Source: a virus
Lineage: Duplodnaviria; Caudoviricetes
DNA length: 64,000 nucleotides
Direction: 5' to 3' (one strand)
IMG/VR virus record: IMGVR_UViG_3300036802_000003
Location: 64,001-128,000 of that record
In this document: piece by piece, positions 3,926 through 49,375 of the stretch
How the letters are laid out: every line of letters starts with the position of its first letter
How positions within the stretch are numbered: position 1 is the first letter of the stretch
The notes under the pieces: generated by a model
What the model was told of the DNA's origin: nothing
Database searches by the model: none
What the model saw: the letters and a program-made list of their open reading frames with translations, nothing else
Position numbers and translations under genes: made by a program

Positions 3926-5959
3926 GTGAGTAAATTTATTGATGGGTTAAACCCAAGCCAAGAGAAAGCAGTATTAGCAATAGATGGACGTGTTCAAATC
4001 AACGCAGTAGCAGGTTCAGGTAAGACTCGTGTTCTAACACACCGTACAGCACATATGGTTACTGACCTTAAAATCAAGCCTAAGAATATCATGTTAACAA
4101 CGTTTACTAAGAAGGCTAGTGAAGAGATGACTGAGCGTCTTAGCAAGTTGTTACCACAGATGAAGCTTATGCAGTTAACAATTGGTACTACACATTCCAT
4201 CGGTTACCGTATTCTGAAGAAGGAATATGAGGCTCTAGGTAATCCCCTATTCCAAGCGTTTAAGAAGAAGGATGGAGTACTAATGGGTGCATCTCAAAAG
4301 TACTTTGCTGAGAGTGTTATCAAGTCTATCATGATGGATAGAACTGTTGAGTTCAATATCAAAGAAGAGCTAAGAGATATGCCAGTTCCAGGGCTACTGA
4401 AGGTAGTAGGCTTAACTAAGAATGAAGGTAGAGACTACAAAGAGTTTGAGGAAGAGAATGCAGGTAAGGGTACTAGAATGGACTGCTATATTGAGTTCTT
4501 CAGACGCTATGAGCTTGCTAAAGCTAGTCAGAATAAGATTGATGGGGACGACATGCTTTACCTTACATGGAAGCTATTTAAAGAGCACCCAGAAATCCTT
4601 AAAAAGTACCAAGACATCTACAAATACATACTAGTGGATGAAGCACAAGATAGCAACTCATTACAATACGAACTAATGAGCATGCTGGCTTATCCAGAGA
4701 ATAACTTATTTATCGTAGGTGATGATGACCAGTCTATGTATGGTTTCCGTGGTGCAAGACCAGAACAGTTTATCGAATTTAGCTCTGCATTTGGTGGCGT
4801 ACAGTCTATTGCACTAGAGGATAACTACCGTAGTAACCCAGCAATCCTAGAGATTGCTAACAACCTTATCAAACATAATACTAAGCGTATTAAGAAGACG
4901 CTTAAAGCACATAAGCAAGATGATAGTGATTGCGTAGCATTATCTGTATTCAAGGATGAGACAGAGGAAGCTAAACAGGTAGTAGAGGATATCAAGATTC
5001 AGGTAGAGAAGAAAGGTAGAAACCACAAGGATATTGCAGTACTTTACCGTACTAATGCTCAATCTCGTGCTATTGAAGATGAGTTAATCATGGCAGGTCT
5101 ACCATACGTTATCCATGGAGGTATCTCTTTCTATGAACGTAAAGAGGTTAAAGACCTTGTATCCTACCTGCAATTAGCGGTTAACCCAGACAATAACCAA
5201 GCATTCAAACGTGTATACAATGTACCTAGTCGATACTTGGGTAAAGAGTTCTACGCTAAGGTAAGTGCTTTTGATGGATCACATTGGGAAGCTATTCTGT
5301 CTGGTAAGCTGAAGCTACAAAACTATCAAGTTAAAGGCTCTCTAGAGTTTGCAGGGGTTATTAAAGACCTACAAGAGATGTTGCAAGAGGGTGCAACTCC
5401 TACAGACTTAGTTAATCATCTGTTAGATAATGTTGGTTATAAGGACTACATCTTAGGTGAGGAAGAAGAGGAAGAGAGTAGCCGTATGGAGAATATTGCA
5501 ACTCTACAATATGTTCTAGACCGTTATGAGAACATTGAAGACTTCCTAGGCTACATCGAGTTAATGACTTCTCAAGCTAAACATAGTATTGATGGAGTTC
5601 AGTTAATGACTATCCATAAGAGTAAGGGTCTTGAGTTCCCTGTAGCATTCTGTGTGGGTGTATCTGAAGGAGTATTACCTCACTTTAGAGCAGTAGAGGC
5701 AGCAGAGAATGGTAAGCCTTTAGCGGTAGAGGAAGAGCGTAGATTACTATACGTTGGTATTACTAGAGCAGAGAGTGAAGTGTATGTATCTTGTCTACAA
5801 GGCTTCAATGGTAGACGTTGTAAGGTAAGTCGCTTTGCTAGAGAGTTAGGTATTGGTGCCTTCAATGCTAAGAAAATAAATGAAGAGTATCAAGGCAGAG
5901 TGCTAGACCCTATTCTTAGAGAACAGCAGGAGATTATGAGAGGTGCAGTGGGGGAGTAA
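3926..5959 (+). CDS. UvrD/PcrA/Rep family SF1 DNA helicase
   Basis: AVAGSGKT Walker A, LVDEAQD, VGDDDQSMYGFRGA, NYRS, MTIHKSKGLEF, EERRLLYVGITRA. Confidence 0.97.
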   Translation: MSKFIDGLNPSQEKAVLAIDGRVQINAVAGSGKTRVLTHRTAHMVTDLKIKPKNIMLTTFTKKASEEMTERLSKLLPQMKLMQLTIGTTHSIGYRILKKEYEALGNPLFQAFKKKDGVLMGASQKYFAESVIKSIMMDRTVEFNIKEELRDMPVPGLLKVVGLTKNEGRDYKEFEEENAGKGTRMDCYIEFFRRYELAKASQNKIDGDDMLYLTWKLFKEHPEILKKYQDIYKYILVDEAQDSNSLQYELMSMLAYPENNLFIVGDDDQSMYGFRGARPEQFIEFSSAFGGVQSIALEDNYRSNPAILEIANNLIKHNTKRIKKTLKAHKQDDSDCVALSVFKDETEEAKQVVEDIKIQVEKKGRNHKDIAVLYRTNAQSRAIEDELIMAGLPYVIHGGISFYERKEVKDLVSYLQLAVNPDNNQAFKRVYNVPSRYLGKEFYAKVSAFDGSHWEAILSGKLKLQNYQVKGSLEFAGVIKDLQEMLQEGATPTDLVNHLLDNVGYKDYILGEEEEEESSRMENIATLQYVLDRYENIEDFLGYIELMTSQAKHSIDGVQLMTIHKSKGLEFPVAFCVGVSEGVLPHFRAVEAAENGKPLAVEEERRLLYVGITRAESEVYVSCLQGFNGRRCKVSRFARELGIGAFNAKKINEEYQGRVLDPILREQQEIMRGAVGE

Positions 5960-10082: not shown

Positions 10083-10345
10083 TGGTAGAAAATACTACTC
10101 AATTCCTATCCCTCCTAAAACTTGCTCAAGGTCATAGATTAAAGGATGCATCTGTTGTTAAGCATGATGATGCTAGTGGAGACTATGAAAGCATAGTACT
10201 GGAGTTCCAAGGGGACAATGGTGATGCAGTTAGCTTTACATTTACTTCCAATTTCCAAATATCCAACAGGGATAGAGATATCATAGATACAAGTATTGAT
10301 GTAGAATCTGCTCGTATAGTTGTGGACTTGCTAGAGAAAAAATAA
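10082..10345 (+). CDS. hypothetical protein
   Basis: TGATG coupling. Confidence 0.7.
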   Translation: MVENTTQFLSLLKLAQGHRLKDASVVKHDDASGDYESIVLEFQGDNGDAVSFTFTSNFQISNRDRDIIDTSIDVESARIVVDLLEKK

Positions 10346-10360
10346 AGGGGGACAAGCACT

Positions 10361-10642
10361 ATGGACAACATTAAAGATGCTAAATTAAAGAGGGTATTAA
10401 CACTACGACACACTATTGAAGAGACTAATAAGAACCTATCAGAGATGAGTGCAGAGTTAACAACACTAGAGAAGGAGTTATATATGGAGTGTGAACATGA
10501 ACGTATGACTCGTGTTTCTGAGTGGACTAAGGTGGATAGCGCTACTACTCTAGTGTTTATGCAGGCTAATTATAAGTGTGATGAGTGCGGTCACATAGAA
10601 TCCATTATGGGGAGAGCTGATAGCAATGTTATCAACCAATAA
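10361..10642 (+). CDS. coiled-coil/Zn-ribbon hypothetical protein
   Basis: CEH...CDECGH. Confidence 0.7.
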   Translation: MDNIKDAKLKRVLTLRHTIEETNKNLSEMSAELTTLEKELYMECEHERMTRVSEWTKVDSATTLVFMQANYKCDECGHIESIMGRADSNVINQ

Positions 10643-11033
10643 TGATAAAGCTATACAGGACATGCTTAACAATAATTGTGAGGTTCGGTTCATTCGTATA
10701 GTTAACGGTGAGGTAAGGGAGCTATGCATGGAGCGGTTTGGTAAAGCATTCATTATACGCTTCACACCATTTGGTCAGCCTATGGTAATGAAACCAGAGT
10801 ATTCTGTATACAAAATAGGTGGTAAGGGTAGAGAAATTAGAGTAGCAGCCTTTTTTGCAGAGGAACTAGAAGACAATATGAAAAACTTTGGTTTCCGTGA
10901 AGGAATGATAGAGGAATGGTATAATGAACTAGTAAGAAACCCTAAGGAGAGGTTTTATAACTCTAACCACACCTTCTACTTTACTAGAACCCCTGACGAT
11001 GAACGTGGATTTAAGAGCAATATACTATCATAA
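10626..11033 (+). CDS. hypothetical protein
   Basis: ORF, followed by terminator. Confidence 0.7.
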   Translation: MLSTNNDKAIQDMLNNNCEVRFIRIVNGEVRELCMERFGKAFIIRFTPFGQPMVMKPEYSVYKIGGKGREIRVAAFFAEELEDNMKNFGFREGMIEEWYNELVRNPKERFYNSNHTFYFTRTPDDERGFKSNILS

Positions 11034-11034
11034 T

Positions 11035-11062
11035 AGGACTCCTACGGGAGTCCTTTTCTTTT
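11035..11062 (+). terminator. rho-independent terminator
   Basis: AGGACTCC-TACG-GGAGTCCT then T-tract. Confidence 0.85.
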
Positions 11063-11255
11063 TGCTCTCCGTTGGTTTCCTCCCCTCTACAGAACTTTCT
11101 AACGAAGTTTCCAATCATCCCCCTATCTGAAACTTCCCCCGAATCCGTTTGCCTTTCAGAAAACTTCCCTACCAGACTTGATAAGGGTTTCTCCTGTTTG
11201 AATCAGTACCCATTTCCGCATATATTTCTTTGTAGTTGGTAACATTAGGAGGTGC

Positions 11256-15837: not shown

Positions 15838-16014
15838 ATGAAAGAGATAACACTAGGTAATACAACGGTAACACAGACTGCTACAGAGATTAAGCTAAAG
15901 GTAAAGGATAAAGAAATAGATAAGATGGTTAGCCTAAATGGTGAGGCAGATATACGCAAACTAGAGAACCTAACGCCTATTGGTAAGACAATGGACATGG
16001 ATCTATATAAATAG
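15838..16014 (+). CDS. 58-aa hypothetical protein (not in ORF track)
   Basis: AAAGGGGG RBS; MKEITLGNTTVTQTATEIKLKV... Confidence 0.6.
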   Translation: MKEITLGNTTVTQTATEIKLKVKDKEIDKMVSLNGEADIRKLENLTPIGKTMDMDLYK

Positions 16015-16091
16015 TAGGACTAGAGTATGGTACAAGAATGACAAGCCATACTCTATTTTTATTTCTGTTAGTATATTAAGGAGGGATAACA

Positions 16092-16346
16092 ATGAATAGT
16101 ATTAATGATATACAAAAGTCTATCAACCAGATTGGTATGGAAGGTGTAGTAAGGTATCTACCAAAGGGTATGAAGCTACATCCATGTGACCTACATGGGA
16201 TGTTCCTATCCCACTATAAGGCAGAGAACCCTGTATGTCCTCTGTGTGTACAGACTGGTACAGGTGAAGGTACTACTGCTACTGATGTAGAGCATTATAT
16301 TAACATTAGAGACATGCTAGCAGTACCTCATAACCCCCACGAGTAG
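16092..16346 (+). CDS. Zn-binding hypothetical protein
   Basis: CDLHG...CPLC; N-terminal IQKS. Confidence 0.7.
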   Translation: MNSINDIQKSINQIGMEGVVRYLPKGMKLHPCDLHGMFLSHYKAENPVCPLCVQTGTGEGTTATDVEHYINIRDMLAVPHNPHE

Positions 16347-16347
16347 G

Positions 16348-16390
16348 GTTTCTATGAGGGTTAGGTAGAAAATCGTTTCCAATTAACAAA
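16348..16390 (+). repeat. dispersed orientation-fixed element, copy 1 of 5
   Basis: TTTCTATGAGGGTTAGGTAGAAAATCGTTTCCAATTAA. Confidence 0.65.
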
Positions 16391-16520
16391 AAAGACTAGG
16401 GAAGAGATAGCGAAACCGCATCTCTTCCTTTTTTATTTTTTCTTTGCGTCCTATGTAGGTTACATCAGTAGCACATCAAAACCGTATAGGGTCAGCCAGT
16501 AGAGTAGGCTAGAGTAACAA

Positions 16521-16556
16521 AACGTCCTTGACTTCCTCACCTCACCATGACATAAT
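16521..16556 (+). promoter_or_regulatory. early promoter, AACGTCC-TTGA class
   Basis: AACGTCC TTGACT-17nt-CATAAT. Confidence 0.85.
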
Positions 16557-16632
16557 TGCTTCAAGCGAGAGGGGCACACCACACAAGGGAATCCCACTCA
16601 ACAAATATTCGAGAATAAAGGAGACGATAATT

Positions 16633-17451
16633 ATGGCATATCTAGTAAACGGTGAGGAAACAGTAGTAACAGTTAAAGAGGTAGGAGCTATCCTTGGTAT
16701 GAAGGTAACTAAGAAGGGTATCCTAGCAGGCGAGTATCCAGAGGTAGAGGTTGTAGAAGTAGAAGATACTAAGGAGGATGTTAATATGGAAGAGAATACT
16801 TTAGTAGAAGCAGCGGTAGAAGAAGGTAAGCTAGAAATCGTTATGGTAGGCGATGCACCTGCTACAGGTGAGCTAGAAGTAGTAGAGGAAGAGCAGGAGG
16901 AACTAGCTCTAGAAGAGGAGCCTATTGAGGAAGAGGTACATACTGAAGAGGAAGTACCTGCTCCTACTGAAGAAGAGCCTGTAGTAGAAGAGTCTAAAGA
17001 AGAGGTAGCAGACTGGAGAGCTATGGCTAAGAAACTTAAACAGCCAGAAGCTAAGGCTAAAGCTCCTAAGGTTAAGGAAGACCTAGCAGGTCAGGAAGTA
17101 GAGTACCCTGAAGTAGGACACTTTGACTCTATCGACGATATCAAGAAGTTCTACAAGCGCCTATCTATGGAGCAGGTTATGGAGTGGGCTGATATTGAGG
17201 GCTTAGAGTGGAAGGCTAACGATAACCCTGGTATCAATCGTATGAGAGTGTGCATGGCTATCAGTAACCACCACTTCCCTAAGAAGACTAGTGGTAAGAA
17301 GAAAGCTAAGTATGGTCACCTATCTACAGAGGATTTACTAGCAATGGCTATTGAGAACGATGTAGAGGTAAGAGAGCCTAAGGGCGATAACGAAAATATC
17401 CTACGCATGTACACTATCATGGCTTTACGTGAAGCAGGACTATTAGCATAG
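16633..17451 (+). CDS. acidic early protein with two C-terminal helical repeats (host-takeover candidate)
   Basis: Glu-rich N-half; C-half paralogous to 22258-22668 and 24095-24496. Confidence 0.85.
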   Translation: MAYLVNGEETVVTVKEVGAILGMKVTKKGILAGEYPEVEVVEVEDTKEDVNMEENTLVEAAVEEGKLEIVMVGDAPATGELEVVEEEQEELALEEEPIEEEVHTEEEVPAPTEEEPVVEESKEEVADWRAMAKKLKQPEAKAKAPKVKEDLAGQEVEYPEVGHFDSIDDIKKFYKRLSMEQVMEWADIEGLEWKANDNPGINRMRVCMAISNHHFPKKTSGKKKAKYGHLSTEDLLAMAIENDVEVREPKGDNENILRMYTIMALREAGLLA

Positions 17452-17455
17452 GTGT

Positions 17456-17523
17456 TGCTAGCATAGCCCCTACGGGGGCTGTAGCACTGGAACATTATAT
17501 GTTACCTAGATAAAAGGAGTGGT
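17456..17523 (+). promoter_or_regulatory. repeated structured intercistronic leader, copy 1
   Basis: TGCTAG-hairpin-TGG AACAT/ATGTT A CCTAG ATAAAAGGAGTGGT. Confidence 0.75.
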
Positions 17524-17527
17524 ATAT

Positions 17528-17839
17528 ATGAATATCCCTACAGAGGTAAAGGCTGGACAGTATTTCGTTACATTCAACTTTGGAGCGTCTTGTATAGTAG
17601 ATGGAGCTACAGGTGAGGTACTTTTCCTACACGATGAGGATGGGCTAGAAGATGGGGAAGGCTTTGTAATAGAGGAAGTATGTAATGAGGCTACTGGTGA
17701 GGAGCAACCGTGGTGCTTCCTAGTAAACAATAAGTTCTTCGTAGATAAGATGGTAGCAGAGGGTACATGGTACTGTGTAGTAAGCGGTAACGGTACTGAT
17801 GGCAACATTACAGGTATCTACAAAGGAGGTATGATTTAA
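17528..17839 (+). CDS. acidic early protein
   Basis: AAAAGGAGTGG RBS. Confidence 0.8.
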   Translation: MNIPTEVKAGQYFVTFNFGASCIVDGATGEVLFLHDEDGLEDGEGFVIEEVCNEATGEEQPWCFLVNNKFFVDKMVAEGTWYCVVSGNGTDGNITGIYKGGMI

Positions 17840-18159
17840 TGACTAGTGTACTAGTAAATAACAAATTGTTACCTGCTGAAGTAATGGAGGAGATAGCCTT
17901 AAAGTTAACTATGCAGTGTGTAGAGTGGGAGAACATAGAAGGGGATATGTACCTAGTGCCTCCTAATATGCACGAGAATAATATGATGACTGTATGGGCA
18001 CATGCTGATCATATGAACGAGATACCTGCACTAGATGACCTACCACTCACTCATACGGAGGATATAAGTACTCATGGGGTTACAGTATCAGTGTATGAGG
18101 AATTCTACATTGACGTTACCTTCCTACACGTACTGGTGGTGAATACAGATGCCTCTTAA
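17839..18159 (+). CDS. early hypothetical protein
   Basis: TAATG coupling, AGGAGG RBS. Confidence 0.75.
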   Translation: MTSVLVNNKLLPAEVMEEIALKLTMQCVEWENIEGDMYLVPPNMHENNMMTVWAHADHMNEIPALDDLPLTHTEDISTHGVTVSVYEEFYIDVTFLHVLVVNTDAS

Positions 18160-18379
18160 TATAGAGTACTCACAAGATGGGATAAGGGGTAGTAAGACAT
18201 ATGAGTCAATGAGTGCTATGCGTAGGTTTATAAAGACTAATGCACTCACTGATTACGCATTAGCTAGGTATATAGGGGATAACCCCTATGATAAGAGTAC
18301 CTACGCGATTATACAGCGTGGTAATGGCTATAAGCATAGTAGTGAGTATGACTATAAAAGGAGTGGATTGTATGAGTAA
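18149..18379 (+). CDS. early hypothetical protein
   Basis: ORF overlapping both neighbours. Confidence 0.65.
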   Translation: MPLNIEYSQDGIRGSKTYESMSAMRRFIKTNALTDYALARYIGDNPYDKSTYAIIQRGNGYKHSSEYDYKRSGLYE

Positions 18380-18716
18380 GAAGGAAATGTATACCAGAGA
18401 AGAAGTAGAGCAGTGGGTAATAAACTTTGTACAGGAGCGTATAGCTGCTATTAAGCATAATGATAGTAACTATGAGGTAGAGGTAGATGACCTAGGAGAC
18501 ATCCTAGTACAGTTTAGAGTAGATGATATGTTAACTAAGTATAGTGCTACCGTCCTACAAGGACTACTAGAGCACTACCACGAGCAGTGGCTATCGTTCT
18601 ACCAAGAGCACTATAGTGGGCTAGCCCTAATGAATCGTACCCATGATAGCCTAGCCTATTACTATGAAGCATGGTACTACTTCTGTAGACCTGGTACCTA
18701 TAAGCTAGACCTATAA
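18372..18716 (+). CDS. early hypothetical protein
   Basis: AAAAGGAGTGG RBS before ATG 18372. Confidence 0.75.
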   Translation: MSKKEMYTREEVEQWVINFVQERIAAIKHNDSNYEVEVDDLGDILVQFRVDDMLTKYSATVLQGLLEHYHEQWLSFYQEHYSGLALMNRTHDSLAYYYEAWYYFCRPGTYKLDL

Positions 18717-18738
18717 GCCCCTACATGGGGCTATTTTT
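18716..18738 (+). terminator. rho-independent terminator
   Basis: AGCCCC-TACAT-GGGGCT then ATTTTT. Confidence 0.75.
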
Positions 18739-18748
18739 ATGCCTAGAC

Positions 18749-18790
18749 GTCTCTATGGAGGGTAGGTAGAAAATCGCTTCAAATAAAACA
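18749..18790 (+). repeat. dispersed orientation-fixed element, copy 2 of 5
   Basis: TCTCTATGGAGGGTAGGTAGAAAATCGCTTCAAATAAA. Confidence 0.65.
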
Positions 18791-18834
18791 CTCCCACACT
18801 ATAGGGTCAGCCCGTAACTAGGATACCAGTAGGC

Positions 18835-18870
18835 AACGTCCTTGAGATTTTCTCCCCTCCGTGCGATAAT
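18835..18870 (+). promoter_or_regulatory. early promoter, AACGTCC-TTGA class
   Basis: AACGTCC TTGAGA-17nt-GATAAT. Confidence 0.85.
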
Positions 18871-18930
18871 TTTGTTACGGGGGACGGGAACAACGTCAAC
18901 CAGACTACAACACACTAGGAGGAAGATAAT

Positions 18931-19242
18931 ATGACAGTATCTAGAGAGGCAGTACAGGAAGCTTACCCTGTAGAGGTAGGAGTAGCAAACGTTCTTATAC
19001 TAGGGGAGGCTACCGAAACGTTTGGTGGTACCCTACAACAGGTTATACCGTATATCCAGGCTGGCTACAGCCACGTAGTAAGAGATAACTACCTAGACAC
19101 GTGGGTAGCCACAGAACCTTTACAGTTTACTGCTAGGGATATAGCAGATATTAAGAGAGCTGTATCTCCAGGTACATATGTTACCCTAGAGAACGACACT
19201 AAGGTAGCAGTATATACAGTGTGTCTAGAAGAAGATATGTAG
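18931..19242 (+). CDS. early hypothetical protein
   Basis: AGGAGG RBS. Confidence 0.8.
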   Translation: MTVSREAVQEAYPVEVGVANVLILGEATETFGGTLQQVIPYIQAGYSHVVRDNYLDTWVATEPLQFTARDIADIKRAVSPGTYVTLENDTKVAVYTVCLEEDM

Positions 19243-19244
19243 TC

Positions 19245-19314
19245 TGCTAGTACTTACCCTCAGGGGTAGGTATCCTGGAGCTTACATAAGAGCTACCTAG
19301 ATAAAAGGAGTGGT
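19245..19314 (+). promoter_or_regulatory. repeated structured intercistronic leader, copy 2
   Basis: TGCTAG-hairpin-TGG AGCT/AGCT A CCTAG ATAAAAGGAGTGGT. Confidence 0.75.
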
Positions 19315-19319
19315 ATATA

Positions 19320-19640
19320 ATGAGTACAGCTAAATTAACTTCAGTAACGGTGTGTGTAGAAAGAACTATTAAGGTAGGTACAATATGTCGTGTCAATACC
19401 AGCTATGGATACCTAGGACTGGATAGTGGTGAGGTAGAGGTTAAGAAGATTGTACCTACATCTGAGCTACCTAAGTATATCGACCTGTATGCATGGGAGC
19501 AGTTCCAAGACGACCCTAGCGATGTACAGAACTGGCAGTGGGTAGGGTTCCAGTATACAGACCCTAAGCAACGTGAGGACGATGACCACTACGAGTACTT
19601 CCCTGTAGAGGAGTTTGCAGACCATATGAGTCAGCTATAG
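19320..19640 (+). CDS. early protein, paralog of 20743-21039
   Basis: Shared ExP, EQ, WVxF/YxY, YxPxxxF. Confidence 0.8.
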   Translation: MSTAKLTSVTVCVERTIKVGTICRVNTSYGYLGLDSGEVEVKKIVPTSELPKYIDLYAWEQFQDDPSDVQNWQWVGFQYTDPKQREDDDHYEYFPVEEFADHMSQL

Positions 19641-19642
19641 GT

Positions 19643-19708
19643 TGCTAGGGCAGGCGATACTATCGCCTTCCTTATGGAGCTAATAGCTACCTAGATAAAA
19701 GGAGTGGT
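19643..19708 (+). promoter_or_regulatory. repeated structured intercistronic leader, copy 3
   Basis: TGCTAG-hairpin-TGG AGCT/AGCT A CCTAG ATAAAAGGAGTGGT. Confidence 0.75.
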
Positions 19709-19712
19709 ATAT

Positions 19713-20111
19713 ATGTTGAGTAAGAAGATGACACCGGTAGCGTACCTATATAGTGAGCGTGCTACAGCTACAGAGGTAGCAGAGTTTGTAAAGCGTGCTA
19801 TGGGTATAGGGCTAACTAAGTTTGTAGAGGATGGGGAGCAGTTTAACCTATTAGCGCTACCTGAGGAGTACCCAGATGACTGGGTAGAAGACCTTATAAA
19901 TGTAGTAATACCTACAGGAGCTATGCTACAAGAAGCAGTATGGCAGGGTAAGGATATCCCTGGTAAGACTCTATATGAGCACTATAGTGTGTGGGAAGTT
20001 AATAAGGTAGAGCGTAAGGGCGATGATAATAGAGCTATTATACGTAAGCAGAACGATAAGGATATCTACCTATTGTTCATAGACAACCCTTATGTGAGAA
20101 ACCCTAGATAG
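19713..20111 (+). CDS. early hypothetical protein
   Basis: RBS from leader copy 3. Confidence 0.8.
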   Translation: MLSKKMTPVAYLYSERATATEVAEFVKRAMGIGLTKFVEDGEQFNLLALPEEYPDDWVEDLINVVIPTGAMLQEAVWQGKDIPGKTLYEHYSVWEVNKVERKGDDNRAIIRKQNDKDIYLLFIDNPYVRNPR

Positions 20112-20124
20112 TCTAGGGTAGGGG

Positions 20125-20160
20125 AACGTCCTTGATGTTTCCCCTGCTCCATGGTATAAT
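20125..20160 (+). promoter_or_regulatory. early promoter, AACGTCC-TTGA class
   Basis: AACGTCC TTGATG-17nt-TATAAT with TG extension. Confidence 0.9.
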
Positions 20161-20211
20161 TTTTTCAAGAGGAGCAGGGGTGCTCCTACTAGAGGCTAGG
20201 AGGAGATAGTA

Positions 20212-20517
20212 ATGATAAAGGTAACATATAAATCGAATGTAGACTGTAATACTAAGGTGGCTATCATAGATGTAGATAAGGAGCAGGTAGTAAAGGATAC
20301 CTCTAACGACGGTACTAAGCTAGTAGATGTATCGGAAGATATGATCTGTACATTCGGTGTTATAGCCGATGGTAGGGACTATACTAGTTGGGGTACTGTG
20401 TACCACCTACTTATGAATAGCCTAGACGTTCCATATAAGGAGACACTAGGGCTAAACATAGAGGGTATCGAAGGCGTACCTATCCTAAAGCTAGAGCTAG
20501 CAGAGGAGGCAGAGTAG
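20212..20517 (+). CDS. early hypothetical protein
   Basis: AGGAGG RBS. Confidence 0.8.
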   Translation: MIKVTYKSNVDCNTKVAIIDVDKEQVVKDTSNDGTKLVDVSEDMICTFGVIADGRDYTSWGTVYHLLMNSLDVPYKETLGLNIEGIEGVPILKLELAEEAE

Positions 20518-20742
20518 TATGCACGAGTGTACCTACTGTGGGGTGTCTAGCCCCTCCCTATCATGGGATAGAGCTACTGCGGATGAGTTCCTAGGTGAGG
20601 GATACAGCATGGATATGATAGGTAGCATCAGTAAGCAGGAGGTAGATACTATCCACATATGTCCAAGTTGTAAAGCAGATACTATTATTAAATAGAGCTA
20701 GGGGCATAGCCCCTAGTACTTACATATAAGGGAGAGGTTAAT

Positions 20743-21039
20743 ATGAACGAACTAGGTAACGCAGAGGCACACATCACTATAGAGGTAAAGCCAGGTAGCG
20801 AGTGGGATATACACCCTACATTTACAAATGGTCTACAAGACCTAGAGCCAGGTGGGGTAGTAGTAGACCATATGGCTAGATATAGAGAGGTACCAGAGGA
20901 CTATCAAGCTCTATTTACTGAGCAGGCATATACTCATCCTAAGGACAGTGTATGGGTGGCATATAAGTACTGGGATGATAACTCTACACTATACTACCTG
21001 CCTACTAAAGTTTTCTTAGGAGCAGTAACTCACAAATAG
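20743..21039 (+). CDS. early protein, paralog of 19320-19640
   Basis: Shared motifs; RBS. Confidence 0.8.
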   Translation: MNELGNAEAHITIEVKPGSEWDIHPTFTNGLQDLEPGGVVVDHMARYREVPEDYQALFTEQAYTHPKDSVWVAYKYWDDNSTLYYLPTKVFLGAVTHK

Positions 21040-21043
21040 ATAT

Positions 21044-21106
21044 TGCTAGGTAGCCTTGTACGCAGGGCTACTCCTGGAATACCTATACTCACAGATAAAA
21101 GGAGAG
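21044..21106 (+). promoter_or_regulatory. repeated structured intercistronic leader, degenerate copy 4
   Basis: TGCTAG-GTAGCCTTG/CAGGGCTAC-TCCTGGAA...AGATAAAAGGAG. Confidence 0.55.
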
Positions 21107-21114
21107 AGTTGACT

Positions 21115-21345
21115 ATGATAAACCTATATGGAACAGTAACACCAGAGGTAAAGGAATGGATAGCAAAGGAGATACGTGGTAATATAGAGGGTACTAGTGC
21201 ATGGCTAGTAGGTAAGGGTAAAGACCCTATCAAGTATACGGAAGAGGATATTGAATGCCTAGTAATAGACTTCCTAAATGGGGTACATGAACAGGTTACT
21301 ATTGATATGGCTAGTAGATTCGAGATAGAGGGGGACTTACTATAA
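21115..21345 (+). CDS. early hypothetical protein
   Basis: RBS before ATG 21115; resembles 21345-21563. Confidence 0.75.
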   Translation: MINLYGTVTPEVKEWIAKEIRGNIEGTSAWLVGKGKDPIKYTEEDIECLVIDFLNGVHEQVTIDMASRFEIEGDLL

Positions 21346-21563
21346 TGGGTACTATTACAGATGAGCAGGTATTAGAATGGCTAAAGGAAAAGGTAGTAGC
21401 AGAGGCTAAGAACTGTAGGGAGCAGGGCTTCCATGTACCTAGTATGACACAGTATGATGTGGATAGGGCTGCTAGTAACTTATTAGAGGATATAGACCAA
21501 CACTTGGTAGCTAAGGCTATAGAGGACGCACTAGGTATAGACATGAATAACCCAGACTACTAG
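21345..21563 (+). CDS. early hypothetical protein
   Basis: TAATG coupling. Confidence 0.75.
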   Translation: MGTITDEQVLEWLKEKVVAEAKNCREQGFHVPSMTQYDVDRAASNLLEDIDQHLVAKAIEDALGIDMNNPDY

Positions 21564-21572
21564 ATAATATAC

Positions 21573-21606
21573 ACCCTATATACACAAACGTATATAGGGT
21601 TTTCTT
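21573..21606 (+). terminator. rho-independent terminator
   Basis: ACCCTATATAC/GTATATAGGGT stem then T-tract. Confidence 0.75.
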
Positions 21607-21612
21607 ATGCTC

Positions 21613-21670
21613 GTTTCTATGAGAGGTACCTACAAATGCACTTCCTATTAAAGCAACTCGGTTCGCTCAT
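21613..21670 (+). repeat. dispersed orientation-fixed element, copy 3 of 5
   Basis: TTTCTATGAGAGGTACCTACAAATGCACTTCCTATTAAAGCAA. Confidence 0.6.
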
Positions 21671-21842
21671 CAGAATCTCCTCCCACCATTCAATCCCCTC
21701 CACCAACCTTTCGCTCTACAAAAAGTTCTAACACTCACCTACTCGAATTTCTCCTGCTTCAATCTTCTGACCCTTTCTCCTTTCTGGTGGATCCACTTAC
21801 AGAGTTGATATAGCACTCACATAGGAGCAGAGGAGGGCATAG

Positions 21843-21871
21843 AAAAAGGGAGTACCAATTGGTACTCCCTT
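21843..21871 (-). terminator. terminator of leftward early operon
   Basis: AAAAAGGGAGTACCAATTGGTACTCCCTT perfect inverted repeat, T-tract on minus strand. Confidence 0.8.
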
Positions 21872-21879
21872 ACACTCAC

Positions 21880-22185
21880 TTACATAGGGGACACTATAGC
21901 TATAGGAGGCAGTGTCTCTACTTCAAATCCACGCTCCGTATACCACTCAGTAGTGGCACTTATCCACTCACTCATACTTGTCTCTACGTCATCTATCTCT
22001 TCATCTAGAGGGTCTAACCCACGCACTCGATACATGATAGCCTTAACATCTGGGTAGTCAACCTCAGGTATCTCACCCTCACCACTCACTAGCAGTAAAG
22101 ATACATACTCACTCTCACGTATGAAGTCACCTGCATCTAAATCATAATATCCAAATGGCTCAACTGCTACTACTAACTTACTCAT
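21880..22185 (-). CDS. acidic early protein
   Basis: GAGGAGTGG RBS of leader copy 5. Confidence 0.8.
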   Translation of the reverse strand: MSKLVVAVEPFGYYDLDAGDFIRESEYVSLLLVSGEGEIPEVDYPDVKAIMYRVRGLDPLDEEIDDVETSMSEWISATTEWYTERGFEVETLPPIAIVSPM

Positions 22186-22189
22186 ACTT

Positions 22190-22255
22190 ACCACTCCTCT
22201 TATCTAGGTAACCAATAGGTTCCATGATACCCCCTCCGTAGAGGGAGTACTAGCA
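22190..22255 (-). promoter_or_regulatory. repeated structured intercistronic leader, copy 5
   Basis: Minus strand: TGCTAG-hairpin-TGG AACC/GGTT A CCTAG ATAAGAGGAGTGGT. Confidence 0.75.
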
Positions 22256-22257
22256 AC

Positions 22258-22668
22258 TTACTGAATCTTACCAGCCGCACGTAGTGCCATAATAGTACGC
22301 ATTCTCATAATCTGCTCGCTATCAGTAAACTCTACTGCTATATCGTTATCTAAGCAGAGTGTCATAAGAGCCTCCATAGTATAGTCTGCATATTTAGCTT
22401 TCTTCTTAGTAGATGGCTCCTTAGGATAGTGGAAGTATAGGATAGCCATACATACTCTCATTCTATGAATTTGTTCGTTATCATTAGGTGTGAATACTAA
22501 TCCTTCTACTTGACACCAATCCTCTAGGATAGACACATCCAGTTGCTTATAGAATTTTTGTAGCCATTTCTTATCCTCGAAGATACCTACCTCAGGATAT
22601 CCATTATTACTAGTAATCCATTCCATAGCGTCTACCTTACCGTTGATGATATTCTCTTTTTTACTCAT
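22258..22668 (-). CDS. early protein with two helical repeats (paralog of 16633 and 24095 genes)
   Basis: YPEVG, KFYKQL, EGL, RMRVCMAI, KKKAKY, RMRTIMALR. Confidence 0.9.
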   Translation of the reverse strand: MSKKENIINGKVDAMEWITSNNGYPEVGIFEDKKWLQKFYKQLDVSILEDWCQVEGLVFTPNDNEQIHRMRVCMAILYFHYPKEPSTKKKAKYADYTMEALMTLCLDNDIAVEFTDSEQIMRMRTIMALRAAGKIQ

Positions 22669-22737
22669 ATCATATTCCTCCTATGCCTCTGTGGGCTGGT
22701 CTTGTAGGAGTCGGTGTGACCCGCTCCCCTTGAATAA

Positions 22738-22773
22738 ATTATATCACGGGTGTGCCGATAACTCAAGGACGTT
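22738..22773 (-). promoter_or_regulatory. early promoter, AACGTCC-TTGA class
   Basis: Minus strand AACGTCC TTGAGT-17nt-TATAAT. Confidence 0.9.
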
Positions 22774-22812
22774 TACTCGTATAGGATGGGGCATACACCT
22801 AGCCCTGTTGGG

Positions 22813-22872
22813 CTTTCTATGGGGGTTACCTACAAACTCCTTTCAAATAAAGCAATCGGAGTTCGCTTATCA
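22813..22872 (+). repeat. dispersed orientation-fixed element, copy 4 of 5
   Basis: TTTCTATGGGGGTTACCTACAAACTCCTTTCAAATAAAGCAA. Confidence 0.6.
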
Positions 22873-23153
22873 ATTACTTTCTCCCCACCAATATACCCAA
22901 CAACAACCCTTCGCTCATATATCTTTTGTATGTGAATTTCTCTCTTCTCTCTCTTTCATATACAAATGGTTCTGACTGATTTTGAAGCAGAAAACTGACA
23001 CAGAACAACACACCAAACACAATTTTTGAGCTACAACTTTTGTACCCAAATTTCTTGTTGAAACCGTTTTGAACCCTTTTGCCCTTCCACTCACAAAGAT
23101 GCGAAAACGGGCTAAAAGATGCCCTACACCCACAAACGCACAAAAATAGACAC

Positions 23154-23309
23154 CTACTTACTGTAGGTGTCTTGATACGCTTCTAACTGCTTCTCTACTC
23201 CAGGGTGTGTCCACGTCACTGCTGTATACACAAGGTTACAAGCTAGGTAAAGGAGCGTACACGCTCCTGTTACCACTAGCACTCGCTTAATCGTTCTAAC
23301 AGTCTTCAC
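23154..23309 (-). CDS. small single-TM membrane protein
   Basis: GGAGGTG RBS before GTG 23309; basic N-terminus then hydrophobic stretch. Confidence 0.65.
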   Translation of the reverse strand: MKTVRTIKRVLVVTGACTLLYLACNLVYTAVTWTHPGVEKQLEAYQDTYSK

Positions 23310-23441
23310 TAGGCTCACCTCCGTTACAGTCGTCACAGATGTCCATAGGGTCATCATACGCTGGGTCATTAGGGCACTGCTTCTGGAACATCTTACCACA
23401 CAGGTCACACGTTACACTCTCTAGATAGTACTTTACGTTAC

Positions 23442-23762
23442 TCACAGGATTCCACCTCCGATACTCACGATACCCTTACGAGCGTACCTCATCAGGTACT
23501 CTAGGTTGTTCCTAGCACTCTGCTCACTCACTACTCCAGTACTCATCAACGGTACTACACTGCCCACTAACGAGTCGTTCACTGCTACGATAGAGGCACA
23601 GAACTCATCCTCCTGCACTTGGTCTAGGATAACCACCCAGATAGACTCAGTACCTTCATACTCACGAGCATCACTGCCCACCATACGGAAGTAGTGCATC
23701 TCACTAGGTGAATTCTCCTCCAGAATAACCCACTCAGGGACGTACGTTTTAGTTTTACCCAT
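23442..23762 (-). CDS. early hypothetical protein
   Basis: RBS of leader copy 6. Confidence 0.8.
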   Translation of the reverse strand: MGKTKTYVPEWVILEENSPSEMHYFRMVGSDAREYEGTESIWVVILDQVQEDEFCASIVAVNDSLVGSVVPLMSTGVVSEQSARNNLEYLMRYARKGIVSIGGGIL

Positions 23763-23766
23763 ACTA

Positions 23767-23834
23767 ACCACTCCTTTTCACTAGGTAGCTAAGTAGCTCC
23801 AGGGCACCCACCCCCGTAGGGGTGAGCACTAGCA
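23767..23834 (-). promoter_or_regulatory. repeated structured intercistronic leader, copy 6
   Basis: Minus strand: TGCTAG-hairpin-TGG AGCT/AGCT A CCTAG TGAAAAGGAGTGGT. Confidence 0.75.
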
Positions 23835-23839
23835 GATAC

Positions 23840-24019
23840 TTACCCCACTAGGGACGCTACTAACTCAACGTCCTCGTAGTCCACTGACAGGGCAATCTTA
23901 GACCCATCAGTACACTCAATGATGATACCGTTCCACTCACCTTCACCGTCCCAGTTCTCACTCACGGTACTCACAGTCTTACCCTCTAAGGACTTCACAA
24001 GACTCCAAAACTTACTCAC
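23840..24019 (-). CDS. small early hypothetical protein
   Basis: RBS of leader copy 7; GTG start. Confidence 0.75.
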   Translation of the reverse strand: MSKFWSLVKSLEGKTVSTVSENWDGEGEWNGIIIECTDGSKIALSVDYEDVELVASLVG

Positions 24020-24022
24020 ACT

Positions 24023-24091
24023 AACCACTCCTTTTGTCTAGGTAGCTTACACAAGCTCCATGGGATACCCCCCGTAGGGGGTAGCCTAGCA
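24023..24091 (-). promoter_or_regulatory. repeated structured intercistronic leader, copy 7
   Basis: Minus strand: TGCTAG-hairpin-TGG AGCTT/AAGCT A CCTAG ACAAAAGGAGTGGT. Confidence 0.75.
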
Positions 24092-24094
24092 ACC

Positions 24095-24496
24095 CTAAGC
24101 TTTCTCGATGTGACCTGCTGCACGTAGCGCCATGATAGTTCGCATACGCATAATCTGTTCAGACTCTGTGTACTCCACCGCCACGTCGTTGTCTAGGCAC
24201 ATCTGCATAAGCTGTTCCATAGTGTAGTCTGCGTACTTAGCTTTTTTCTTAGCGGAAGGCTCCTTAGGGAAGTGTAGGTACAGGATAGCCATACACATCC
24301 GCATACGGTTGATAGCCTCAGAATCCTCACAAGGTTTGAACTCTAGTCCTTCGATACCAATCCAGTCACCTAGAGTTACATCATCAAGTTGTTTGTAGAA
24401 CTTCTGTAGGTCTTTTTTCTCTGTGAAGTGCCCTACCTCTGGAAAACCGTTTTCCTCTACGTGCTTCACTGCGTCTACCTTTTTCGCTTTAGCCAT
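24095..24496 (-). CDS. early protein with two helical repeats (paralog of 16633 and 22258 genes)
   Basis: Near-identical C-half to 22258-22668. Confidence 0.9.
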   Translation of the reverse strand: MAKAKKVDAVKHVEENGFPEVGHFTEKKDLQKFYKQLDDVTLGDWIGIEGLEFKPCEDSEAINRMRMCMAILYLHFPKEPSAKKKAKYADYTMEQLMQMCLDNDVAVEYTESEQIMRMRTIMALRAAGHIEKA

Positions 24497-24593
24497 AATC
24501 AATCAATCTCCTTTTCGCTCTTGAGTTTTTTGTGTAGGTCGTGGGTACCGTCCGTGTGTTGCTCTGGTGTGGTGCCCTCTTCCTCTTGAACTA

Positions 24594-24629
24594 AGTTTAC
24601 CACGAAACGGAGGTAAAGTCAAGGACGTT
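24594..24629 (-). promoter_or_regulatory. early promoter, AACGTCC-TTGA class
   Basis: Minus strand AACGTCC TTGACT-17nt-TAAACT with TG extension. Confidence 0.85.
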
Positions 24630-24667
24630 TCCCTACTTAGAGTGGGGGTATATCCCTAGCCCTAGGC

Positions 24668-24730
24668 GTTTCTATGGGGTCTAGGTAGAAACTTGCTTCA
24701 TATAAAGAAGAGCGAGGTATCGCTTCACCA
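24668..24730 (+). repeat. dispersed orientation-fixed element, copy 5 of 5
   Basis: TTTCTATGGGGTCTAGGTAGAAACTTGCTTCATATAAAG. Confidence 0.6.
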
Positions 24731-24822
24731 CCAGTTCCCCCACCACAACCCTTATCTTTAATATAAATATAATATAATGTTCTAATATCCTCTTTCTTCT
24801 ATATAATTTCCTTTTAGTATAC

Positions 24823-25002
24823 TAATAATACGATATATGCATATTACACACTTAATATATACACAAAACACAATATACTAAAACACATACTCTTAATAAG
24901 CGAATAATACGATATATACGGGCTATAACACTAAATCACAATAACACGATATCCTTGGGGCAGGACATTACTTGCAATATACGAATAATACGATATACAC
25001 GG
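24823..25002 (+). repeat. three direct repeats AATAATACGATATA
   Basis: Copies near 24825, 24903 and 24984 in an AT-rich gap. Confidence 0.7.
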
Positions 25003-25666
25003 ACTGTAGACATCGAGCATTTGCGTGGCGCAGGACAGGGCTTAGGGCGTACCTGATACAGCAGAGGCAGCGCTATAGTGCCTAAGCGTTCCAGCAGTCC
25101 GTGGGGCAGCACTAAGACGCTAGGCGTCCCCAGAATCCTTGGGGCAGTCTTAGATAGTAATCGACGTTCGTTATCACTTACTCTCTTCACCACCAATTAC
25201 CCCACCACCAACCTTTCGTACTAAATAGATATTATAAACTCTACTCTCTTATAACTTTCATCTGCTAACTATGTTCATCTTCCTTCCTCTTTTTCTTTTT
25301 GTGCCTTCAACTCCTACAACTATCAACTGTACACATTTTGTTACTGTATGTTTTCTCTCTTCTTCGTCTATGGTCTCGTTTTGACTGTACGTGGTATATG
25401 CCTCCGCATTTAAATTTTTTATTAAAGCTTAAAGATATAAATACTTAAAAGAGTCTTTTAATATACTCTTTTTTAAATTAAAAAATAAATACTTAAAAGC
25501 TTTAAATTACGTACGAAGTACGTAACTAAAAAGCGATAGCGACCATAGGAACGTCCCACCTGCAAGGAGTAGATTATAGGATGGTGGGTCATCCTCTACC
25601 AGTTTCGTAGGAAGGAGAAGATTTGGGACTTGTTCCCTTCTTTTAGTGCAAAGGGAGGTTGTGAGC

Positions 25667-47775: not shown

Positions 47776-47846
47776 GGAGCCTTAGTTTAATGGTAAAACA
47801 GGGTGCTCATAACACTCCATCGTAGGTTCGATACCTACAGGCTCCA
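47776..47846 (+). tRNA. tRNA-Met(CAT) (Met versus Ile2 not resolved)
   Basis: Acceptor GGAGCCT/AGGCTCC, D-arm GTTT-AATGGT-AAAC, loop CTCATAA, T-arm GTAGG-TTCGATA-CCTAC. Confidence 0.9.
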
Positions 47847-48064: not shown

Positions 48065-48136
48065 TACCCCATAGCTCAAAGGTAAGAGCAACTAGTCAAG
48101 GCTAGGAAGGTGCAAGTTCGAAACTTGTTGGGGTAG
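48065..48136 (+). tRNA. tRNA-like gene with aberrant anticodon loop
   Basis: Acceptor TACCCCA/TGGGGTA, D-arm GCTC/GAGC, T-arm CAAG-TTCGAAA-CTTG; CTAG-TCAAGG-CTAG anticodon arm lacks a 7-nt loop. Confidence 0.65.
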
Positions 48137-48750: not shown

Positions 48751-48822
48751 GGGGGTATAGTTTAACAGGTAAAACAGTGGTCTCCAAAACCACCGTCCTA
48801 GGTTCGAATCCTAGTACCCTCG
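48751..48822 (+). tRNA. tRNA-Trp(CCA)
   Basis: Acceptor GGGGGTA/TACCCTC, anticodon arm GTGGT-CTCCAAA-ACCAC, T-arm CTAGG-TTCGAAT-CCTAG. Confidence 0.92.
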
Positions 48823-48829
48823 TTACCTA

Positions 48830-49375
48830 CATTAACAGTAAGAGACAGTAGACTGTCAGGGTTACAAACTAGACTAAGTGGCTTGTAGGTCAATGCCTAA
48901 GTCTTGTACCTGATTGGTGTAGCAGCAGCCACGATGACCACTAGACCATAGCTGTTTTTGTAGGATTCACAGCATGTAAGAGTGTTGTATACTAACTATA
49001 CTAAGTGTGGTTAGAAAGTCAAATTTTTAGCTTACTGGTGACGGAAAACACCAACAAGCACCCCACTAAAGGTAGGAAAGGTACCCTACACGCTAGTGCC
49101 TTTAGCATTAGTTACCAGAGATGCAGGATACACCGCCCTGCTTAGTGGAAGTCACTTTGCCAGTATGTACTGGCACTATCACATATCACAAAGATATGTT
49201 TGTAAATTTTATTAGCTCAATTAATCTTGAGTGCTAACACTAGGTAGAGCAGACTACCGAATATAAAAAGCATTCCACACTATCAAGCCAGATTGATAGA
49301 CGCACATAGGGGGCGTACCTGTGGTCTTAAACGGGGGTAAAGGCAGACTGGTGAGTCCGATACCTCTGGGTTCCC
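48830..49375 (+). ncRNA. candidate large ornate ncRNA (GOLLD/ROOL-type context)
   Basis: About 550 nt with no tracked ORF after tRNA-Trp; a dozen consecutive or nested helices. Confidence 0.55.

Follow-up and report, generated by a model that had tools for sequence, protein, structure and literature searches.

A 64,000-nucleotide (nt) stretch of phage DNA (the window, bases 64001–128000 of IMG/VR record IMGVR_UViG_3300036802_000003, which is 139,244 base pairs (bp) long and has direct terminal repeats) carries seven copies of a structured RNA element, c1–c7, each lying between two genes. The element consists of UGCUAG, a hairpin (hairpin 1), UGG, a second hairpin (hairpin 2) and usually CCUAG, and is followed by a Shine–Dalgarno (SD) sequence. 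We propose, with a probability of about 0.75, that all seven are SP82/SPO1-type signals for mRNA processing between cistrons and serve as substrates of the host RNase III, an orthologue of the Bacillus subtilis enzyme (Bs-RNase III), in early, host-takeover-like operons of the terminal repeat. This family of processing signals has been known since 1983. Its Bs-RNase III sites are the subject of Panganiban and Whiteley (1983), Mitra and Bechhofer (1994) and Stewart et al. (1998).

The pattern UGCUAG-N20-40-UGG-N8-25-CCUAG occurs six times in the window compared with an expected 0.36, and none of 100 shuffled sequences reached six. A covariance model built from the window's seven copies only, with the two hairpins as structure (R1), scored these copies at 56–77 bits, with the next best match in the window at 12 bits, and recovered a degenerate copy at 21044 that the pattern missed. 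No copy beyond the seven was found when R1 was used to search the whole 139,244-bp genome. All seven lie on the coding strand of their transcripts, the upstream stop codon precedes UGCUAG by 2–5 nt, and the distance from stop to start codon is 72–77 nt. Hairpin 1 frequently has a UACG tetraloop. After the element the order is CCUAG, 6 nt, GGAG and the start codon, with the A/G-rich, SD-like AAAAGGAG 7 nt past CCUAG in every copy. An earlier note on this DNA, made from its letters, had described seven copies that always follow transcript orientation, start just past a stop codon and are joined to a strong SD, and each of these statements holds (7 of 7 for orientation and position). A strong SD is also present without an element at 18354, and it is a general trait of these early genes that is not tied to the element.

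The identity of the family comes from phage SPO1. R1 matches six intergenic sites in the SPO1 terminal redundancy with scores of 33–39.5 bits (E values of 1e-8 to 6e-7). GenBank record AF031901.1, the sequence of that terminal redundancy, annotates ‘RNAse III site’ features RS-A to RS-F; the full SPO1 records have no RNase III features, which are present only in AF031901.1. We take this record to be the work of Stewart et al. from 1998. A refined covariance model (R2) was used on AF031901.1, and its matches at 11032–11088, 10737–10794, 10110–10166 and 5424–5479 overlap RS-A (11043–11095), RS-B (10750–10799), RS-C (10123–10170) and RS-D (5415–5473), respectively. Two more matches lie at 4115–4170 on the plus strand, downstream of promoter PE5 in the gene 44 leader, and at 10533–10587 on the minus strand, between genes 58 and 57 at the annotated terminator TL2.7; they score 51.6 and 53 bits, as high as RS-A to RS-D. 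Since a model made from the window copies alone finds RS-A to RS-D, the two sets belong to the same family. The earlier note had supposed an architecture different from that of the SPO1 RNase III sites, which is not borne out, although its more general proposal of an RNA-level intercistronic processing or stabilizing element of early mRNAs is supported as to kind. On homology, the window elements belong with the RNase III processing signals of SP82 and SPO1, and here they occur in a Siminovitchvirus-like phage.

Selection for RNA structure was assessed in 34 distinct copies, which come from the window phage, its relatives Shanette, JL and CP-51 (Bacillus phages), IMG/VR contigs and SPO1. In hairpins 1 and 2, 92.9% of the pair cells are paired, compared with 64.9% after shuffling and 35–48% for slid partners, and double changes occur in 12 of 13 pairs. 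Both hairpins covary, as the earlier note had said of the second stem. For example, AACC/GGUU in hairpin 2 of c5 is replaced by AGCC/GGCU in the JL and CP-51 orthologues. There are 38 G-U and 9 A-C cells, such that 92.9% of cells pair when the sense strand is read but 86.2% when the antisense strand is, and this excess of G-U on the sense strand indicates that the element is selected as RNA.

As annotated, RS-A begins 7 nt and RS-B 5 nt before GUUGCUAG, and both end within hairpin 2; these boundaries prompted a test for an additional, lower stem. Its 5′ arm (positions −1 to −7) is the nucleotide before UUGCUAG together with the six before that, including the stop codon, and its 3′ arm (+1 to +7) follows UGGAR. 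Pairing amounts to 78% in 41 distinct copies and 80% in 21 representative variants, against 54% with permuted partners (0 of 2,000 and 0 of 5,000 permutations reach the observed value) and 34–47% in shifted registers, even though the stem sequences are wholly different among copies (AUGUAG/UUACAU in c2; UUUAAAGG/CUUUUAAA in a contig of 33% GC). The ends of RS-A and RS-B correspond to −8 to +8 and −6 to +6 of this stem, matching a fold in which the lower stem and hairpin 1 form one long hairpin. With 12 nt of 5′ flank, the minimum free energy (MFE) fold is this long hairpin in six of the seven copies. In c2 it has 7 + 2 + 4 + 9 pairs (∼22 bp, about two helical turns) and an internal loop. Within this hairpin CUAG pairs with CUGG (YUGG), and C/U2-U3 pairs with the A-R of UGGAR; copies with C at position 2 all have G at R, which fits this pairing.

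The lower stem and hairpin 2 use shared nucleotides and are therefore mutually exclusive. The two folds have similar energies, and both covary; in c3 the values are −26.8 kcal/mol for the long hairpin and −20.0 kcal/mol for hairpin 1 plus hairpin 2. The c4 variant, which is without hairpin 2 and retains six of seven lower-stem pairs, is conserved in Shanette, JL and CP-51, and hence the long hairpin looks to be the indispensable part of the element. The earlier note had suggested that the two CUAG sequences can close a three-way junction. This is not the best fold, as the 5′ CUAG pairs with YUGG in the long hairpin and the 7 nt that follow UGGAR covary with the 5′ flank; none of the six SPO1 copies has the 3′ CUAG, nor does either distant copy described below, so that the junction is at most genus-specific and was rejected as a family feature. 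An SD-sequestering helix predicted by RNAalifold (GCUACCU with GGAGUGG) was also set aside as unsupported, its columns being invariant and the helix itself missing in SPO1.

Among the non-native targets of B. subtilis RNase III are RNAs of SP82 (PMC4838370), and these SP82 targets have internal loops and receive one cut in the downstream side of the stem (PMC1935012). A statement in PMC7509114 that cites Hue et al. (1995) has the half-life of an SP82 mRNA shortened by mutation of a sequence resembling a ribosome-binding site (RBS), and one in PMC3896407 that cites Stewart (1998) has the SPO1 terminal redundancy bearing RNase III cleavage sites. No phage-encoded RNase III was found with PF14622, and a host enzyme is therefore implied. 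We propose that the long hairpin would form first, during transcription, as the very end of the upstream gene, stop codon included, pairs with the 7 nt that follow UGGAR. The lower stem, the CUAG/YUGG helix and hairpin 1 would then add up to a single irregular hairpin, about two turns long and interrupted by a conserved internal loop, and this hairpin would be the nuclease substrate. By analogy with SP82, RNase III would cleave the 3′ side at a single point close to the bulge and UGG, ∼10–11 bp below the loop. The upstream mRNA would retain hairpin 1, often with its UACG tetraloop, as a 3′ cap, and the downstream RNA would begin at or beside GG-ARNN...NNYU-A-CC which, its pairing partner gone, may refold into hairpin 2 with a bulged A. 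Hairpin 2, together with a ribosome at the adjoining strong SD, would probably shield the new 5′-monophosphate end from RNase J1, like the polypurine ‘5′ stabilizer’ of SP82. As a side effect, the ∼80-nt repeated unit would mark, and probably mediate, exchange of gene cassettes.

Several points weigh against this proposal. Cleavage in this phage and genus is a prediction from sequence and analogy, and the refolding step and 5′-cap role of hairpin 2 are likewise putative. We take the exact cut site, and the dependence of the SPO1 annotations on SP82 mapping, from the GenBank record, secondary citations and general background. Two of the six SPO1 model matches carry no RNase III site annotation, and RS-E and RS-F of AF031901.1 were not matched by R2; from their sequences, RS-F is a single hairpin without a second one and RS-E bears only a weak resemblance to the element. 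Copy c4 would have to work without hairpin 2, if it works at all, and the conserved unpaired nucleotides would equally suit another sequence-specific factor.

Such a factor could be an RNA-binding translational regulator, of phage or host origin, that reads the invariant UUGCUAG, AUGGAGC and GCUAC as its operator and controls the SD without cleavage. The invariant loop nucleotides persist across phages of 33–60% local GC, the element abuts the SD, and the GCUACCU–GGAGUGG pairing would mask the SD whenever hairpin 2 has its 5′ arm otherwise occupied. However, the SPO1 homologues carry an RNase III site annotation, the SD-pairing columns are invariant and show no covariation, ACCU is absent from the SPO1 copies, and a two-turn hairpin with covarying stems is what a double-stranded RNA nuclease needs; we consider such an operator unlikely. 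That the element acts instead as DNA, as a PeSL-like recombination module or mobile regulatory cassette with incidental RNA folds, appears quite unlikely, as the stem sequences vary yet pairing is kept, the G-U asymmetry marks the transcript strand, and the lower stem covaries with the 3′ end of each upstream gene. A promoter scan placed no site within the seven element spans. In its favour, homology with Shanette, JL and CP-51 breaks at the borders of elements or RBSs, and one slot differs in gene content: between c7 and c6 the window has an additional gene, whereas Shanette has only one element there and CP-51 an unrelated gene; breakpoints at gene borders are, however, expected in phage mosaics.

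A compact, branched fold with invariant unpaired nucleotides might also suggest a small ribozyme through which the polycistronic mRNA would cleave itself, with no need of a host enzyme, but we find this very improbable. No Rfam family matches the elements at gathering score in the window, at E values up to 1 in 16000–25500, or at gathering scores in the terminal repeats of the relatives; no known catalytic core motif is evident, and a Hammerhead_3 search of 14 related large phage genomes gave a single sub-threshold match only. SP82 sites, moreover, reportedly need purified enzyme, a result said to go back to Panganiban and Whiteley in 1983. There is similarly scant reason to see in the element a processive antitermination or attenuation signal acting on RNA polymerase. 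Two hairpins with conserved bases, repeated along operons, do recall the two-hairpin put RNAs, but there is one copy per cistron junction, directly past the stop codons, the operons still end at ordinary terminators, and the homology is to annotated RNase III sites. The idea of a tRNA-like element or RNase P substrate was abandoned, since no RCCA-like bases follow hairpin 1.

The RNase III reading has a stronger form, which is possible but doubtful, in which the element would act as a processing-coupled RNA switch, both of its folds being under selection, and also as the joint at which early-gene cassettes recombine. If this is true, then in uncut RNA the stop-codon flank would lock the 5′ arm of hairpin 2 in the RNase III substrate, leaving GCUACCU free for weak pairing with the SD, and the substrate would sense ribosomes terminating upstream; after the cut the 5′-terminal hairpin would snap in, free the SD and block RNase J1. 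In that case the narrow sequence specificity of Bacillus RNase III, long unexplained, would be defined by the 20 or more natural variants that covary while their internal-loop bases stay invariant.

The window copies share with the SP82/SPO1 sites a conserved GUUGCUAG, a variable GC-rich upper stem, (N)AUGGAGC and GCUAC, a lower stem derived from the upstream stop-codon flank, and a strong SD just downstream. Both are stem-internal loop-stem hairpins of about two helical turns, intercistronic and transcript-oriented, in early operons of the terminal redundancy. Unlike SPO1, which has ACUAAAU or ACCACAG, the window elements end in ACCUAG followed by a fixed AUAAAAGGAGUGGU; the window phage belongs to another genus with a Bacillus cereus group host, and UACG tetraloops dominate. 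The covarying alternative hairpin 2 described here is not part of the GenBank annotation of the SPO1 sites. The SP82 polypurine 5′ stabilizer (Hue, Cohen and Bechhofer, 1995) is a strong SD-like purine run directly 3′ of an RNase III site, and a run of this kind follows the predicted sites of the window, where it would be expected to protect the downstream product of cleavage; in contrast to that stabilizer, the window's predicted downstream product would have the covarying hairpin 2 at its very 5′ end. The RNase III sites R0.3–R1.3 of the T7 early transcript are likewise stem-internal loop-stem structures between early cistrons, with a single 3′-side cut and a hairpin left as 3′ stabilizer, but the conserved nucleotides differ, as does the enzyme, Bacillus RNase III being described as narrow in specificity. 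To our knowledge, there is no sequence relationship between these T7 sites and the window elements. The PeSL mobile regulatory cassettes of T4-type phages, which Arbiol et al. are said to have described in 2010, are also repeated intergenic stem-loop units bordering swapped early-gene cassettes. The PeSL unit has an early promoter inside it, whereas none of the promoter sites from our scan lies inside the window elements, which are selected as RNA.

The region that holds the elements is 84–86% identical to Shanette, JL and CP-51 (Herelleviridae, Spounavirinae, Siminovitchvirus), and by its sequence the phage is a CP-51-like, or Siminovitchvirus-like, Bacillus phage. The counterpart region in Shanette and JL falls within the annotated 16-kb terminal repeat, and CP-51 carries the same gene block. 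The genes around the elements are small open reading frames (ORFs) in two convergent sets, a layout like that of the SPO1 host-takeover module, and a Pfam search of 10 flanking proteins found no family in any of them. In a promoter and terminator scan (threshold for promoters, 9 or more of 12 hexamer matches), all seven copies lie inside operons bounded by promoters and ordinary terminators. Five extended −10 promoters bound these operons, at 16528, 18842 and 20132 on the plus strand and 22766 and 24622 on the minus strand. These early sigma-A-type promoters (16518–16568, 18832–18882, 20122–20172, plus; 22766–22738, 24622–24594, minus) have in common AACGTCCTTGA and a TG-extended −10 box. At 20142–20180 a perfect 10-bp inverted repeat, CCCCTGCTCC...GGAGCAGGGG, flanks the −10 box and the likely start site, and may serve as an operator or fold into a hairpin when read-through RNA is made; the remaining early promoters have weaker, differing inverted repeats at the equivalent position.

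On the plus strand, c1 (17448–17530; R1 score 60.1 bits) lies between a 307-amino-acid ORF (16528–17451) and ORF 17528–17839. Its long hairpin (17448–17499) takes in the stop codon TAG (17449–17451), UGCUAG (17456–17461) and UGGAA (17488–17492); hairpin 2 and ACCUAG extend to 17509, and the SD GGAG (17516–17519) precedes the ATG at 17528. Copy c2 (19237–19322; 62.9 bits), between ORFs 18931–19242 and 19320–19640, has its stop codon TAG at 19240–19242, the ∼22-bp long hairpin at 19237–19287, UGCUAG at 19245–19250 and UGGAG at 19276–19280, with CCUAG ending at 19300, the SD at 19307–19310 and ATG at 19320. The ORF that starts there is followed by c3 (19635–19715; 56.8 bits), which leads into ORF 19713–20111: TAG is at 19638–19640, the long hairpin at 19635–19686, UGCUAG at 19643–19648, UGGAG at 19675–19679, the end of CCUAG at 19694, the SD at 19701–19704 and ATG at 19713. 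The degenerate c4 (21036–21117; 56.3 bits), between ORFs 20743–21039 and 21115–21345, keeps UGCUAG (21044–21049), hairpin 1, UGGAA (21075–21079), the 6/7 lower stem, the SD (21101–21104) and ATG (21115), but the 3′ arm of hairpin 2 is absent and CACAG replaces CCUAG. A simple intercistronic hairpin, GCUAGGGGC-AUA-GCCCCUAG, occupies 20696–20742, directly after the stop of ORF 20519–20695 and before the SD of ORF 20743; it gives no model match and resembles the single-hairpin SPO1 site RS-F.

The three minus-strand copies begin with c5 (22183–22263; 77.5 bits), between ORFs 22668–22258 and 22185–21880, where the stop codon TAA (22260–22258), the long hairpin (22263–22213), UGCUAG (22255–22250) and UGGAA (22224–22220) are followed by the end of CCUAG at 22204, the SD (22197–22194) and ATG at 22185. 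Copy c6 (23760–23842; 61.1 bits) separates ORFs 24019–23840 and 23762–23442, with TAA at 23842–23840, the long hairpin at 23842–23790, UGCUAG at 23834–23829, UGGAG at 23801–23797, CCUAG ending at 23781, the SD at 23774–23771 and ATG at 23762. Between ORFs 24502–24095 and 24019–23840 lies c7 (24017–24099; 69.6 bits), comprising TAG (24097–24095), the long hairpin (24099–24049), UGCUAG (24091–24086), UGGAG (24060–24056), CCUAG to 24038 and the SD (24031–24028), and here the start is an in-frame GTG (24019–24017).

BLAST homology with Shanette, JL and CP-51 ends or resumes at 17532, 19300/19301, 22177/22178, 23834 and 24016, which are edges of the element-plus-RBS unit. The breakpoint at 19300/19301 (c2) is with JL and CP-51, that at 22177/22178 falls at c5, homology with Shanette and JL ends at 23834 (c6), and homology with all three resumes at 24016 (c7). 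An extra small gene (24019–23840) is flanked by c7 and c6 where Shanette has one element, and in CP-51 the gene annotated between two elements at the corresponding slot has no DNA similarity to the window's gene by BLAST. Copies c1, c5 and c7 follow paralogous gene 3′ ends, and the element appears, from these sequences, to have been copied along with the end of the gene before it. The paralogues at 22258–22668 and 24095–24502 (minus strand) are 75% identical over 205 nt, and a related sequence forms the 3′ part of 16528–17451 (plus strand); each is followed by an element. The mosaic breakpoints fit recombination between repeated units and are in line with the cassette shuffling that the earlier note had raised, but breakpoints at gene borders are to be expected in phage mosaics anyway, and cassette exchange is therefore treated as a plausible side effect only.

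Other repeats occur near the early block. A 42-nt direct repeat, GTTTCTATGRGGG..TAGGTAG/TACCTAC..AAA, has five copies sited between operons (16348–16389, 18749–18790, 21613–21654, 22813–22854 and 24668–24709), all in plus orientation regardless of gene direction, with TAGGTAG as the central heptamer in three and TACCTAC in two. The AT-rich gap after the early block (24809–25008) contains three 40-nt repeats (..AATAATACGATATA..) spaced by ∼80 nt, which could be iterons or a binding array. Further along the window, three tRNA genes are followed just downstream by a full-length match to the skipping-rope RNA (RF02924, 66.4 bits), the four features lying at 47776–47846, 48065–48136, 48751–48822 and 49062–49149.

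The covariance search of Rfam and phage genomes returned no Rfam family and gave phage matches in SPO1, Shanette, JL, CP-51 and IMG/VR contigs. Shanette has six copies, JL five and CP-51 seven, all within the same gene block. Seven further IMG/VR contigs carry the element. Outside the CP-51-like phages and SPO1, single copies in an 8.5-kb contig (33% GC) and a 158-kb phage have the same layout of stop codon, element, SD and start codon. No match was found in 22 other Herelleviridae-like records with 40–68% portal identity, 13 of which are at least 90% complete. The strict pattern occurs at 34 loci in 185,579 bacterial and archaeal genomes, with no credible copy among them; the best two are marginal (26 bits) and without hairpin and SD context, and so look like chance.

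What these results add to the known family is modest, namely dual-fold covariation, defined invariant bases and breakpoints at element edges, and it is not a new kind of system. The covariation backs the published long-hairpin substrate and also brings out another hairpin, incompatible with the first, that could cap the product of cleavage. With about 21 independent variants from nature, the invariant bases can be told apart from those that only need to pair. Practical uses would lie in annotating early operons and cistron borders in these phages, and in compact, portable cut-and-stabilize modules for the design of expression in Bacillus. The classic SP82/SPO1 RNase III signal would now be represented in a second genus as well, that of the CP-51-like phages (B. 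cereus group), and in a few uncultured phages.

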